A stretch of 64,000 nt of DNA, taken from the sequence record PQ330092. One strand, written 5' to 3'. The position numbers were made by a program, and so were the translations under genes. This document shows positions 53,737 through 58,528 of this stretch, in pieces. How positions within the stretch are numbered: the first letter of the stretch is position 1; each line of letters starts with the position of its first letter. The notes under the pieces were generated by a model. That model saw only the letters and a program-made list of their open reading frames with translations, was not told the origin of the DNA and did not search any database. The stretch is from Escherichia phage JP4.

Positions 53737-53964
53737 ATGACAAATACTCTTAAGTACTACCTCAATACTCTAAATGAACTAGAGTACGGGGAATTTCTCG
53801 CGGATAGTTCGTGGCTAATTGAGCTAAAAAATTATAATAGTCCAGGATGCACCCTTATGATGAACAATGCAATTGATACCCTCATTGTGAGTATTTTACA
53901 CAGCAACATCTGCGGGGATAGCAATAAACAATTATCAAAAATCTTAGTACTGCTATCTATATGA
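53737..53964 (+). CDS. small protein, tandem paralog family C
   Basis: 75-aa ORF with aaggag SD; first unit of the array. Confidence 0.5.
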   Translation: MTNTLKYYLNTLNELEYGEFLADSSWLIELKNYNSPGCTLMMNNAIDTLIVSILHSNICGDSNKQLSKILVLLSI

Positions 53965-54164
53965 ATATCGAACAGTACTACATCGATGCACTACCAACAA
54001 AAGGTCTACGTGAAAGCCTACTGCATACACAAACTAATTTCAAACACCTCAAACGTAGCCCTAAACTCCTGAACTCGTACAGGAATAATAACATAAGAAA
54101 TGCTTTACAAGGGGTAGAATGTATGCAATACTATTACATCCTTACCCTATTAATCGAGTACTAA
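53961..54164 (+). CDS. small protein, tandem paralog family C
   Basis: MNIEQYYIDALP..LTLLIEY; ATGA overlap. Confidence 0.5.
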   Translation: MNIEQYYIDALPTKGLRESLLHTQTNFKHLKRSPKLLNSYRNNNIRNALQGVECMQYYYILTLLIEY

Positions 54165-54165
54165 T

Positions 54166-54375
54166 ATGAATACTGAACATAAAGAATTCTACACCAAATA
54201 CCTTAGCAACGAAGAACAATTGTTTCTAAGGAGTGTATCACCTGTAAGTACCAATACTCAATTCGGTAGAGATTGCTTTAATAATTGTATACGTAGTACT
54301 CTAGAAGCAATCGAATGCAATAACAAAAATATTATGTACTCAGGTTTAATAGGACTAATATATTTCTATGAATAA
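54166..54375 (+). CDS. small protein, tandem paralog family C
   Basis: MNTEHKEFYTKYL..GLIYFYE; near-twin of 57747-57956. Confidence 0.55.
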   Translation: MNTEHKEFYTKYLSNEEQLFLRSVSPVSTNTQFGRDCFNNCIRSTLEAIECNNKNIMYSGLIGLIYFYE

Positions 54376-54562
54376 TCATAAAGATTTCTATTGTAGTAAA
54401 CTACCCAAACAAGAACAGCTATCATTCTCTTTAGCACCACCTATGAGAAAGGATAATCTGTATTATAATTACGATTTCAGGATGGTGACACGTTATGCAA
54501 TAGAACATCAGTTCCCTGAAACTAAGTACCGCTCTATCCTGAACCTCATCTTTAAGTTCTAA
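54368..54562 (+). CDS. small protein, tandem paralog family C
   Basis: MNNHKDFYCSKLP..LNLIFKF. Confidence 0.5.
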   Translation: MNNHKDFYCSKLPKQEQLSFSLAPPMRKDNLYYNYDFRMVTRYAIEHQFPETKYRSILNLIFKF

Positions 54563-54614
54563 AAGGTACACCAGGGACCGAGTACTTTAATATAGTAAGG
54601 CTAATTACATTATA

Positions 54615-54800
54615 ATGAATCATATAAGCTACTACTACCAACAACTATCCGACAGAGACAAGTACAGTCACAACTCCCATGTGTGGTACTACAAACGCGG
54701 CAGTATAAGAGACAAACAACATTACTTCTGTATTTCTATTAAAGAAGCACTGACAACTAAGTACACGTACCGAGCAGTACTTAAACTTATTGAAATGTAA
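54615..54800 (+). CDS. small protein, tandem paralog family C (KYTYR..VLKLI subtype)
   Basis: ..TKYTYRAVLKLIEM. Confidence 0.5.
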   Translation: MNHISYYYQQLSDRDKYSHNSHVWYYKRGSIRDKQHYFCISIKEALTTKYTYRAVLKLIEM

Positions 54801-54810
54801 AGAGAATACT

Positions 54811-54993
54811 ATGAACATTGAATTGTACTTAAGTAAATTACAGCCTGGCGATAGATTCATCTACAATAAGTTCGAATTCAACTACAAGAACGGGAGCAAC
54901 AAATATCGTCGAGGATACCTATATACAAGCACAAGAGATGCACAAAACGAAAAGTACACATACAGAGAAGTACTTAAACTAATCTCTATTTGA
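54811..54993 (+). CDS. small protein, tandem paralog family C (KYTYR..VLKLI subtype)
   Basis: ATG 54811 (MNIELYL..) ..EKYTYREVLKLISI; track start 54790 overlaps. Confidence 0.5.
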   Translation: MNIELYLSKLQPGDRFIYNKFEFNYKNGSNKYRRGYLYTSTRDAQNEKYTYREVLKLISI

Positions 54994-55001
54994 GGTAATA
55001 T

Positions 55002-55187
55002 ATGAATACATTTGAGTACTATACCAATAAACTATCTATGCCTGAAAGATCTCATCTCTATGTGTGGAGAAATGCGTATAAAAGCGGCAATAAACTTATA
55101 CAAAGAAATTCCCTTACAGTGTGTACAAATTTAATTAAAGCAGAGTACCGCACATATATTGAAGTACTCAAACTGATAGCAATATAA
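55002..55187 (+). CDS. small protein, tandem paralog family C (VLKLI subtype)
   Basis: MNTFEYYTNKL..YIEVLKLIAI. Confidence 0.5.
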   Translation: MNTFEYYTNKLSMPERSHLYVWRNAYKSGNKLIQRNSLTVCTNLIKAEYRTYIEVLKLIAI

Positions 55188-55195
55188 GGTACTCT

Positions 55196-55375
55196 ATGCA
55201 AGAATTCTATATCTATAACCTCCAGCACAAAGATAGATACAACTATAATAAATTCCAAAGGTACTACACAGTCGGGAACAAAAGAGATAAAAAACGTTAT
55301 CTACTCTCGTGTACAGTAGAAGCACAAAACGAAAAGTACACGTACAGAGAAGTACTTAAACTAATCTCAATCTAA
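55196..55375 (+). CDS. small protein, tandem paralog family C (absent from ORF track)
   Basis: 59-aa ORF MQEFYIYNL..EKYTYREVLKLISI; below the 60-aa track cutoff. Confidence 0.5.
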   Translation: MQEFYIYNLQHKDRYNYNKFQRYYTVGNKRDKKRYLLSCTVEAQNEKYTYREVLKLISI

Positions 55376-55382
55376 GGTAGAC

Positions 55383-55571
55383 ATGAACACTTTTGAGTAC
55401 TACTTCAATAAACTAAACCACATAGAACAAAGTATGCACCACACATTTATTCAGAACCATCAATCATCTTCACCTCTAATTAAAAACATATCGATTGAGA
55501 TTATCACTACCCGTGTACAGTCATCTGAACGTTATATGTATATTGATGTACTGAAACTCATCTCTATGTAA
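55383..55571 (+). CDS. small protein, tandem paralog family C (VLKLI subtype)
   Basis: MNTFEYYFNKL..YIDVLKLISM. Confidence 0.5.
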   Translation: MNTFEYYFNKLNHIEQSMHHTFIQNHQSSSPLIKNISIEIITTRVQSSERYMYIDVLKLISM

Positions 55572-55579
55572 GGAATACT

Positions 55580-56985: not shown

Positions 56986-56986
56986 T

Positions 56987-57169
56987 ATGCACAAAGAATA
57001 CTACACACAATTTCTCCCCAGCATTTTTGAACACTACGCCAGATACAAAGTCCCTATGGATAACGATTTGGCAGTACTGGGATTCAATAACTGCATAGAA
57101 CGAAGTATAGAAAATAGTAGTAGTTATGACCAGCTATATAACACTATCCTACTTATATTCAGGTACTAA
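56987..57169 (+). CDS. small protein, tandem paralog family C
   Basis: MHKEYYTQFLP..ILLIFRY. Confidence 0.55.
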   Translation: MHKEYYTQFLPSIFEHYARYKVPMDNDLAVLGFNNCIERSIENSSSYDQLYNTILLIFRY

Positions 57170-57170
57170 T

Positions 57171-57359
57171 ATGCATAAAGAATACTACACAAAATATTTC
57201 CCAATGTACCTCAGTACTAATCTATTAGATAAACCTCGCGGTATCAATGCACAAAACGATAAAGTGTACTTTACTATGTGCACTAAAGCATGTATACTAG
57301 ATCATGACAGCTACCATCGAGTACTGTATCATACCCTGTACCTAGCTTTCGTATTCTAA
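57171..57359 (+). CDS. small protein, tandem paralog family C
   Basis: ATG 57171 (MHKEYYTKYFP..) ..LYLAFVF; track start 57126 overlaps. Confidence 0.55.
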   Translation: MHKEYYTKYFPMYLSTNLLDKPRGINAQNDKVYFTMCTKACILDHDSYHRVLYHTLYLAFVF

Positions 57360-57368
57360 GAGAACAAT

Positions 57369-57554
57369 ATGCATAAAGAATTCTACTTAAGCCATCTCGA
57401 TCTAAACTCCCAAATGCTTATACCACTAATCCCAATAGATATCAAGGATAAGAAAAATACCGAACAATTCATTTACCATACACAGTGTGCGATCACCCCA
57501 AATTACATTCCATATGAATTGTACTACATTATCGCCCTAATATATAGGTACTAA
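57369..57554 (+). CDS. small protein, tandem paralog family C
   Basis: MHKEFYLSHL..IALIYRY. Confidence 0.55.
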   Translation: MHKEFYLSHLDLNSQMLIPLIPIDIKDKKNTEQFIYHTQCAITPNYIPYELYYIIALIYRY

Positions 57555-57555
57555 T

Positions 57556-57741
57556 ATGCATAGAGAATACTACACACAATTTGTTAAAGGGAACTACAAA
57601 TGTGCCGTACCCAGAACCCCTTTAAATTCTCATGACCCAAGTACTATATTCTTGTTTAATGACGCAATACGTACAGTACTCAATACTAAAGATGAAGATG
57701 TGCAGTACGTATTCTTACTATTACTTATATACAGACACTAA
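57556..57741 (+). CDS. small protein, tandem paralog family C
   Basis: MHREYYTQFV..LLLLIYRH. Confidence 0.55.
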   Translation: MHREYYTQFVKGNYKCAVPRTPLNSHDPSTIFLFNDAIRTVLNTKDEDVQYVFLLLLIYRH

Positions 57742-57746
57742 CTAAT

Positions 57747-57956
57747 ATGAATAAAGAACATAAAGAATTCTACTCCAAATACATAAGCCCCTCAGAACAA
57801 ATGTTTCTAAGGACTACTCCACCTTTAAGTACTAATACATTTTTCGGCAGAGTATGCTACAATAATTGTATTCAAATGACTTTAAACGCAAATGAAGATG
57901 GTAACAGTACTAACCTGTACTCAGGTATCATAGGTATACTATTCCTGTATGAATAA
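57747..57956 (+). CDS. small protein, tandem paralog family C
   Basis: MNKEHKEFYSKYI..GILFLYE; near-twin of 54166-54375. Confidence 0.55.
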   Translation: MNKEHKEFYSKYISPSEQMFLRTTPPLSTNTFFGRVCYNNCIQMTLNANEDGNSTNLYSGIIGILFLYE

Positions 57957-58137
57957 TTACAAAGACTTCTATTTGAATACACTACCTACTGTACTTTCTC
58001 TAAGTGCTCAATGTAAAATCCCGCTGGATAATGCTTACGCCAGATATAGCTATTCCATAACTGTTAATCGATGTATAGAGAATCATTGCAGTACTAACCA
58101 GTACTATAACATAATCCTACTTATATTCAGGTACTAA
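57949..58137 (+). CDS. small protein, tandem paralog family C
   Basis: MNNYKDFYLNTLP..ILLIFRY. Confidence 0.55.
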   Translation: MNNYKDFYLNTLPTVLSLSAQCKIPLDNAYARYSYSITVNRCIENHCSTNQYYNIILLIFRY

Positions 58138-58138
58138 T

Positions 58139-58321
58139 ATGAATACTGAACATAAAGAATTCTATATACGAAAACTAACATTCGTCCCCGTAAGAATATA
58201 TAAAGAATGCGACCCAAGATTATACCTATGGCACTTCAATGAGTGCATAAAAGATTCTATATACCATAAGAACTATAAAGAACAATTGTGCTCAGTACTA
58301 ACACTAGTACTATCATATTAA
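58139..58321 (+). CDS. small protein, tandem paralog family C
   Basis: MNTEHKEFYIRKL..LTLVLSY. Confidence 0.55.
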   Translation: MNTEHKEFYIRKLTFVPVRIYKECDPRLYLWHFNECIKDSIYHKNYKEQLCSVLTLVLSY

Positions 58322-58336
58322 TTAATAGAGAATACT

Positions 58337-58528
58337 ATGTATAAAAACTTCTATATAAGTAAACTAAAAGAAAATGAACAAGTATGGATTAGATCTATAA
58401 TTCCACTGGCATTTAATAGATATGCATTTAACAGATGTACCGAGATTGCTATAGACCCTTATAATATCAAAGAGAATGTACAGTATAATCAGTACTACTA
58501 TATCTTAATGCTTATATATAGGAAGTAA
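58337..58528 (+). CDS. small protein, tandem paralog family C
   Basis: MYKNFYISKL..ILMLIYRK; last unit. Confidence 0.55.
   Translation: MYKNFYISKLKENEQVWIRSIIPLAFNRYAFNRCTEIAIDPYNIKENVQYNQYYYILMLIYRK

Follow-up and report, generated by a model that had tools for sequence, protein, structure and literature searches.

The plus strand of a 64,000-nucleotide (nt) stretch of Escherichia phage JP4 (record PQ330092; hereafter the window, whose numbering is used throughout) carries at 53737-58528 a tandem array of 21 intact open reading frames (ORFs), here u01 to u21, which encode proteins of 59-75 amino acids (aa) and each have an ATG start and a single stop codon, in line with the roughly 21 back-to-back small ORFs reported in a first-pass annotation of this DNA. 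Profile comparisons place 20 of these units in a single protein family, comprising 13 members of subfamily A, six of subfamily B and the divergent u02, while the membership of u01 is doubtful. The family is catalogued but uncharacterised, and the array is a lineage-specific expansion of paralogs in a large phage. We estimate at about 50% the probability that it represents an early-expressed family evolving by birth and death, whose products would be small intracellular binders used for host takeover or counter-defence. We regard the array as a moderately interesting candidate, not as a new kind of system.

In the model that we propose, the whole block would be transcribed as one polycistronic mRNA by the unmodified host RNA polymerase, leading to early expression, apart from the neighbouring late-type virion genes. 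The array would grow, shrink and be shuffled via unequal homologous recombination at the conserved unit junctions, in a birth-and-death or "accordion" process, and the unit proteins would present variable surfaces on a conserved hydrophobic core. Inside the infected cell, they may act as small stoichiometric binders of host proteins, either for takeover or for the inhibition of defences, with different paralogs covering different or polymorphic targets. This host-binding function, which we propose from context and by analogy, is the weakest step of the model.

To define the family, we grouped the units by all-against-all BLASTP and shuffle-calibrated global alignments. Three groups were found: subfamily A (u03, u04 and u11-u21), subfamily B (u05-u10), and the outliers u01 and u02. 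A family hidden Markov model (HMM) recovered 21/21 units with expectation (E) values of 7e-13 or lower, while the best other ORF of the window, among 228, reached 0.013. This model was trained on the same 21 units and is thus circular for the outliers, but the distance to the next ORF indicates that, within the window, the family is confined to this block. Profile-profile comparison of subfamilies A and B was borderline when restricted to the JP4 window sequences (62% probability, E 8e-5). Using genus-wide profiles, in which each subgroup was enriched with alleles from 12 related genomes, the same comparison with hhalign reached 93% probability (E 2.5e-7, 54 collinear columns), and a profile of u02 orthologs matched subfamily A with 89% probability (E 2e-6, 58 columns). 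An unrelated small-protein family of the same phage, used as a negative control, gave E values of 0.03-0.17. The u01 profile fell in a control-like range against A, B and u02 (probability 2-7%, E 0.005-0.03), and its resemblance to the family is limited to position, size and the KYY..L and ...LLSI motifs. Moreover, an HMM built from subfamily A alone placed seven of the eight non-A units in the top 10 of 215 other ORFs (P = 2e-10). The initial proposal that all units are paralogous is thus supported for 20 of them by independent profile comparison, and not for u01, which scores like the control.

Subfamily A displays an N-terminal M(NN)HKE(F/Y)Y..L and a C-terminal L.LI(F/Y)RY motif; the (H)KE(F/Y)Y..L start and hydrophobic RY ending described in the first-pass annotation are therefore real in 13 units. 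The differing C terminus that it assigned to 54615-55759 corresponds to subfamily B, whose members end in ...Y(R/I)EVLKLISI. Paralogs are 20-59% identical with mostly saturated synonymous sites, and a codon-level comparison of the closest pairs gave a synonymous divergence (dS) ranging from 0.6 to saturation and a ratio of non-synonymous to synonymous divergence (dN/dS) of 0.3-0.7. Two observations that had been named beforehand as speaking against a protein family, repetition at the DNA level and interrupting stop codons, are both absent: the saturated paralog dS together with a dN/dS below 1 rules out a nucleotide-level repeat and points to a family maintained at the protein level, and all 21 ORFs are intact. 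The closest pair, u03 and u18, shares 59% of its protein and 74% of its DNA sequence with a dS of ~0.6, indicating an old duplication rather than the recent one previously deduced from these apparent near-twins (54166-54375 and 57747-57956). Judging from these alignments, u03-u04 and u18-u19 are the products of an old duplication of a two-gene block.

We then compared the units with catalogued phage proteins. The entry phrog_11711 of PHROGs v4, labelled "unknown function," matched end to end exactly 13 of the 21 units, all of subfamily A (E 1e-27 to 1e-12, best 1.2e-27), while the remaining eight (subfamily B, u01 and u02) matched neither this entry at E<=0.01 nor any other PHROG. The entry is also silent on the tandem organisation. 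The earlier statement that no described family matches thus requires amendment: subfamily A is phrog_11711, but this is a catalogue entry without a function, and subfamily B and u02 lie outside it.

Region 53700-58600 is 99.7% identical over its entire length to Escherichia phage vB_EcoM_E9.1 (E9.1), and about 30 further myophages of E. coli and Salmonella, with genomes of ~350 kilobases (kb) and belonging to the genus Asteriusvirus, match the array region with 78-100% coverage and 93-99% identity, including 121Q, PBECO4, SP27, phAPEC6 and BF17. These matches identify the JP4 window as part of an Asteriusvirus jumbo coliphage of the 121Q/PBECO4 group. The array units are labelled "hypothetical protein" in all deposited records (~35 GenBank phage records), and the array is not specifically described in the genome papers on Sharanji, phAPEC6, fEgEco12, UE-S1, BF17 and 121Q or in 2026 reviews. 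A word-indexed search of 5.8 billion proteins returned 51 clusters. Searched exhaustively with a profile in HMMER, 1.84 billion representatives yielded 34 matches, all of 41-69 aa. Neither search found relatives outside Asteriusvirus. Using tblastn, we found the family in 35 phage records, exclusively Escherichia or Salmonella jumbo phages. The most divergent matches come from JNE01-like phages, which have the same layout of an RCC1-like array, a small array and a central gene of ~224 aa. As far as these searches reach, the family is an invention of the genus Asteriusvirus.

The predicted structure is compatible with small soluble proteins. An AlphaFold2 model of u13, computed from a 50-sequence family alignment, has a predicted local distance difference test (pLDDT) score of 90.3 and a predicted template modelling (pTM) score of 0.75, with helices at residues 3-9, 14-17, 30-45 and 49-62, suggesting that the units are ~60-aa soluble four-helix proteins. 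The conserved columns are almost all hydrophobic (Y8, which is invariant, and L12, F36, C39, I44, L53, I56, L57, L59 and I60), the others being K5-E6 and P24, while variability is high in the loop at positions 14-35 and on the other faces of the helices: the family combines a fixed core with diversified surfaces. All units are rich in Tyr and Phe (11-21% aromatic residues). Subfamily A is near neutral or acidic, whereas five of the six B units are basic, with an isoelectric point (pI) of 9.2-9.6 and a net charge of +2.6 to +5.6. The profile searches advocated in the first-pass annotation gave the units no function: nothing was found in Pfam or among PDB sequences, PADLOC matched only 1/21 units (E 0.0024) and NCBIfam gave two single matches (E>0.03), with nothing above noise across several members in either. 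Foldseek found nothing at E<1 in the PDB, and in BFVD only the family's own members. Neither in sequence nor in structure did the units match a helix-turn-helix or another known DNA-binding fold, and they had no match to characterised anti-defence inhibitors via Pfam, PDB and BFVD, no dedicated anti-defence library having been searched. The modelled fold thus has no detectable analogue.

We next examined the signals that could control expression of the array. The putative operon promoter, which is of the host sigma-70 type, and the AAGGAG sequence, a Shine-Dalgarno (SD) motif (Table 1), are located within an 84-base-pair (bp) divergent intergenic region upstream of u01. The -35 and -10 boxes, their spacing and the ribosome-binding site are kept in 12/12 aligned relatives, including the divergent JNE01 and Turkey5. 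Promoters of this architecture, with perfect TTGACA and TATAAT boxes, are also found in the window at 14612, 59157 and 61921, and the terminal repeat of E9.1 holds five of them. Gaps between units are typically of 1-15 nt; TAA-T-ATG with a 1-nt gap occurs six times, an ATGA overlap once and 8-nt overlaps three times, in agreement with the overlapping or abutting stop and start codons (TAATATG, ATGA) first noticed. Also as first noticed, three units are shorter than 60 aa, all of them of 59 aa (starts at 55196, 55580 and 56606). The tight packing stands, but the array is not unbroken, an unrelated gene encoding 219 aa having been overlooked in its middle; the sole sizeable gap, of 52 nt, lies just upstream of subfamily B. 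An SD-like triplet is present at -14 to -7 of 15 of 22 starts, and the others mostly overlap the preceding stop. In subfamily A, the preceding unit supplies the SD with its penultimate codon, which encodes Arg (AGG-TAC-TAA-T-ATG, 7 nt before the next ATG), AGG being found at this position in 41 of 52 alleles compared with 4.8% of the Arg codons in long ORFs of the window. AGG thus serves as the SD of the next cistron, and part of the "conserved C-terminal RY" reflects a constraint at the nucleotide level. Downstream of the last unit, the RNA fold of 58520-58840 is more stable than shuffled sequences (z = -4.3), and the long imperfect hairpin found there is possibly the 3′ end or a stabiliser of the operon transcript; an Rfam scan of 53000-64000 gave no match.

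Comparison of the locus in 13 genomes revealed extensive turnover, with 14-21 recognisable units per locus that differ in order and identity. At >=50% identity, the 226 units form 41 types, two of which are universal and 22 restricted to one or two genomes. When 300-bp tiles are compared with any single relative, 99-100% identity alternates with 75-90% or no match, whereas the identity profile of the flanks is more uniform. Units of a Salmonella phage are 100% identical to those of E. coli phages, and chimeric alleles occur, such as the database protein P0003, which combines a u13-like body with a u15-like C terminus. The unit junctions (conserved C terminus, stop, conserved N terminus) form direct repeats of 60-80 nt with 78-84% identity and are plausible substrates for unequal crossing-over, the mechanism that we infer. 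Pooled ortholog dN/dS is 0.36 (402 synonymous changes over 4014 sites and 621 non-synonymous changes over 16530 sites), compared with 0.15-0.24 for six neighbouring genes in the same computation and 0.47 for the central 219-aa gene, which shows that the units are real, translated genes on which purifying selection acts, if in a relaxed form. u09, u04 and u13 approach or exceed 1, with small counts. The dN/dS values, a measure proposed in the first-pass annotation for the variable core, thus reveal purifying selection among both orthologs and paralogs, and no general arms-race signature.

These data also bear on the possibility, which we consider unlikely, that the array is dispensable filler, generated by tandem amplification after capsid enlargement (the ratchet of Hua et al.) and subject to neutral copy-number drift that adjusts genome length. 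Copy number indeed varies without obvious host correlation, a Salmonella phage shares fully identical units, and constraint is about twice as relaxed as in the neighbours, yet dN/dS is clearly below 1 despite the saturated paralog dS, which indicates long-term maintenance. Likewise, tandem duplication has been proposed as a route of jumbo-genome growth (Hua et al. 2017, and later reviews) and a second, unrelated small-gene array lies across the terminal repeat, but neutral drift would not readily account for an intact frame, start and ribosome-binding site in every unit of well-assembled genomes, for a promoter conserved genus-wide, or for a hydrophobic core that is kept at 25-30% pairwise identity and supports a confident fold prediction.

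The array is located close to the physical end of the genome. The linear E9.1 and BF17 records, which are independent, both begin at the base aligning to window position 58792, BF17 is reported to have direct terminal repeats (DTRs) of ~20.5 kb (PMC10059673), and the same genes are annotated at both genome ends of E9.1. The array, which ends at 58528, 263 bp before the repeat, and points into it, is thus the last coding block of the unique genome. From 58792, the first 1.6 kb is ORF-poor, yet more conserved than the array (90-97% identity even with JNE01), and is a candidate packaging, replication or early-control region. The terminal repeat of E9.1 (1-20100 of its record) contains ~67 small genes on one strand, all without a named product except for a DksA-like zinc-finger protein and an acetyltransferase; their gaps, mostly of 60-100 nt, suggest individual promoters, unlike the tightly coupled array. 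Directly past the left repeat, at 20205-24000 and beyond in the E9.1 record, lies a second array, unrelated and co-oriented, of at least 16 paralogs of ~65-90 aa with the motif LGTNYQExYV and overlapping start and stop codons. In E9.1, the terminal repeat is therefore flanked on both sides by co-oriented small-protein arrays.

The same region is marked by a palindrome, CAGTACTG, which is the commonest 8-mer of the window (52 copies versus 0.8 expected) and whose core AGTACT, a ScaI site, occurs 233 times versus 22 expected. Its density reaches 3.5/kb at the start of the terminal repeat (densest in 58600-64000) versus 0.5/kb elsewhere, and its sites lie in the spacers of perfect sigma-70-type promoters, in the terminator hairpins of RCC1-like genes and in coding sequence in several frames. 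It may serve as an operator, or as a site of modification or binding; a literature search for it returned unrelated primer sequences only.

It is conceivable, if doubtful, that the units are nucleic-acid-binding or regulatory proteins acting on phage DNA, with AGTACT/CAGTACTG or the nearby genome end as targets. They are small helical domains encoded next to the terminal repeat, the palindrome is present in the array promoter as well as in the DTR promoters, and the closest analogy, the ~35-copy expansion of phage G, consists of zinc ribbons. The basic charge that would favour such a role is found in subfamily B, however, and not in subfamily A, and hypervariable surfaces are ill-suited to recognising one conserved motif.

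On its other side, the small array is adjacent to 13 tandem paralogous RCC1-like (beta-propeller) ORFs on the minus strand (38887-53652). Nearly every RCC1-like gene has a cassette of its own, in which the terminator hairpin GCCAGTACTTGATACTGGC, with a T-run, is followed by a -10-only box, ATTAAATATAGTATAAT, and this by AAAGGAGG; a -35 element is missing from these cassettes. For several ORFs of this region, the start given in the ORF track is the ATG of the TATAATG box itself, and the true start probably lies further downstream. Given the -35/-10 promoter of the small array and the -10-only cassettes of its neighbour, the two adjacent arrays appear to belong to different temporal classes. Two other loci of the window bear on promoter-class switching: 11264-12229, whose counterpart in E9.1 carries the annotation of an RNA polymerase sigma factor, and ~26.6-27.3 kb, where a T7 gp0.7-like protein kinase is encoded. 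Analysis of phAPEC6 virions by electrospray ionisation tandem mass spectrometry (ESI-MS/MS) identified 62 proteins, which include the RCC1-like gp549 and gp551 and none of the small-array products gp540c-548c (PMC7247149).

Given that every genome has the two arrays side by side and in divergent orientation, that both are variable, and that RCC1-like proteins are virion components, the units might be partners of the latter, with a chaperone, adaptor or regulator for each beta-propeller paralog. We find this improbable. Tail-fibre chaperones are usually encoded downstream of their clients, as in T4 gp38/gp57-type arrangements, whereas the units lie on the opposite strand and not downstream of the supposed clients. 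In addition, their number does not match (21 units versus 12-13 RCC1-like genes), the promoter classes differ and no unit was detected in virions.

In every relative examined, the 219-aa gene lies at the same place in the middle of the array; two Salmonella phages, SD-2_S15 and SD-6_S16, have a truncated version of it, and its homologs are confined to the same phage genus. Its product contains a lysine-rich stretch (KKRNKKKKSRN), and the 3′ part of the gene harbors four CAGTACTG copies within 240 bp (56135-56382). The whole protein did not match the family HMM, its last 60 aa gave a weak unit-like signal (E ~0.03), and chimeric N+C constructs were not significant, which makes a unit interrupted by an inserted domain, or a unit-like C terminus, a weak possibility at most. 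Its AlphaFold model, with a pLDDT of 38, is too poor for structural inference; Pfam and PHROGs revealed no toxin, enzyme or other domain. An effector and immunity locus, with this protein as the toxin and the units as cognate or orphan neutralisers, would agree with its constant position and with the fact that immunity gene clusters are typically recognised by such runs of small, diverged paralogs (PMC3482391, PMC3113570), but is highly improbable, because the supposed toxin has no recognisable domain or confident model, the units match no Imm/SUKH-type family and flank the central gene on both sides, and the array is retained in SD-2_S15.

The hypothesis of an early-expressed family directed at the host fits the context, namely the promoter, the lack of detection in the phAPEC6 virion, the turnover, the variable surfaces and the position at the edge of the terminal repeat. 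Several points weigh against it. The array lies just outside the terminal repeat, unlike classic host-takeover modules. The promoter timing is deduced from resemblance to a consensus, and the region contains no more promoter-like sites than shuffled sequence does. Absence from one virion proteome is weak evidence for proteins this small. Searches of Pfam, PDB and BFVD gave the fold no sequence or structural tie to any known inhibitor. Finally, ortholog dN/dS is below 1, with only low-count units near 1, and the alleles are phylogenetically non-independent, which makes the P-values for codon use and dN/dS optimistic. A bolder version of the hypothesis, which we put forward tentatively, is that the array is a battery of inhibitors with a new four-helix fold, each paralog acting against a different or differently allelic target in host defence or host takeover and the set being reshuffled by unequal crossing-over near the genome end, much as in multigene families that serve immune evasion. 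With the LGTNYQ array on the other side, the flanks of the repeat would then constitute "innovation zones" of these jumbo genomes.

Host-takeover blocks located inside long terminal repeats include the SPO1 gp37-60 module, the T5 pre-early genes and the terminal-repeat genes of Kayvirus. They consist mostly of unrelated single genes, each with its own promoter, and their products are non-structural. The JP4 array resembles them in its many tiny, co-oriented and uncharacterised genes near a terminal repeat, in its host-type promoter, which in JP4 is predicted, and in its presumably non-structural products, but it differs in lying outside the repeat, in containing one paralogous family in what is apparently one operon, and in showing no sequence or fold similarity to them. 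A second parallel is provided by poxvirus genomic accordions, as exemplified by K3L amplification (Elde et al. 2012, as cited in PMC13359090). In both cases, small genes (in the poxvirus, a host-interaction gene) are arranged in tandem, copy number varies between close relatives and recombination between repeats is the likely engine; the poxvirus copies, however, are near-identical and recent, whereas the JP4 paralogs are diverged and old.

Lineage-specific tandem expansion of a small protein has been reported in other jumbo phages. Hua et al. (2017) mention ">30 very similar genes" in 121Q and phage G (PMC5646251), and Iyer et al. (2021) describe ~35 zinc-ribbon copies in phage G; these expansions involve another protein family than the JP4 array. 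The 121Q array is most likely the unrelated LGTNYQ array across the terminal repeat, an attribution that we infer because no coordinates are given for 121Q. Finally, polymorphic-toxin immunity arrays share with the JP4 locus the tandem small diverged paralogs, the conserved scaffold and the variable surfaces, and differ from it in their context, since JP4 is a lytic phage and not a bacterial conflict locus, and in that JP4 has neither a recognisable toxin partner nor a known immunity family.

Most jumbo-phage genes lack a known function, and the mode by which these genomes grow is debated. The array offers a tractable case of tandem duplication followed by long diversification, with ~20 copies, 41 types and visible recombination junctions. 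If the units inhibit host factors or defences, the anti-defence repertoire would gain a new small-protein fold, and their turnover would bear on the host range of a phage group under development as a treatment for pathogenic E. coli and Salmonella. Should they prove dispensable, the array would favour the view that neutral amplification of genes fills spare room in the capsid. The coordinates of all features are given in Table 1.

Table 1. Features of the small-protein array and of the adjoining genome end in the JP4 window
Feature	Position	Strand	Remarks
Putative operon promoter	53683-53711	+	TTGACA, 17-nt spacer with palindrome CAGTACTG, TACTAT; consensus scan 10/12
AAGGAG Shine-Dalgarno of u01	53723-53728	+	Read from sequence, 8 nt upstream of ATG; genus-wide conservation
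u01	53737-53964	+	75 aa, intact ORF; doubtful family member
u02	53961-54164	+	67 aa, divergent member; start overlaps u01 stop (ATGA)
u03	54166-54375	+	69 aa, subfamily A, long form ending ...LYE; closest paralog u18
u04	54368-54562	+	64 aa, subfamily A; second gene of duplicated block, pairs with u19
Weak candidate internal promoter	54587-54616	+	TTAATA-18-TATAAT in 52-nt gap; consensus match only
u05	54615-54800	+	61 aa, subfamily B
u06	54811-54993	+	60 aa, subfamily B; start agrees with E9.1 annotation
u07	55002-55187	+	61 aa, subfamily B; top cross-match of A-only HMM, E 0.005
u08	55196-55375	+	59 aa, subfamily B
u09	55383-55571	+	62 aa, subfamily B
u10	55580-55759	+	59 aa, subfamily B
Unrelated 219-aa gene	55770-56429	+	phrog_29152, unknown function; mid-array
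u11	56422-56604	+	60 aa, subfamily A; 8-nt overlap with the end of the 219-aa gene
u12	56606-56785	+	59 aa, subfamily A
u13	56794-56985	+	63 aa, subfamily A; unit used for AlphaFold2 model
u14	56987-57169	+	60 aa, subfamily A
u15	57171-57359	+	62 aa, subfamily A; start agrees with E9.1 annotation
u16	57369-57554	+	61 aa, subfamily A
u17	57556-57741	+	61 aa, subfamily A
u18	57747-57956	+	69 aa, subfamily A, long form; related to u03 by an old duplication
u19	57949-58137	+	62 aa, subfamily A; old duplicate of u04
u20	58139-58321	+	60 aa, subfamily A
u21	58337-58528	+	63 aa, subfamily A; final gene of the array
Long imperfect hairpin	~58546-58630	+	Directly after final stop, within 263-bp spacer; no T-run
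Boundary of long direct terminal repeat (physical genome end)	58792-58812	+	Short GC hairpin 58796-58812
Perfect promoter TTGACA-16-TATAAT	59157-59184		Start of terminal repeat
Tandem GGCTAAACGG/GGCTAGATGG repeats	59599-59698		Start of terminal repeat
Duplicated ~45-nt element	60316-60413		Start of terminal repeat

Two observations concern the other end of the window. ORFs of ~140 aa at its start were considered as a further paralog family, which was unsupported at E<1e-5. A tRNA scan of the entire window (ARAGORN) found none, and comparison of window positions 1-1500 with 288944-291600 of E9.1 showed that ~1.15 kb of E9.1 is absent from JP4 near the window start, a segment in which E9.1 is annotated with a tRNA-Thr.

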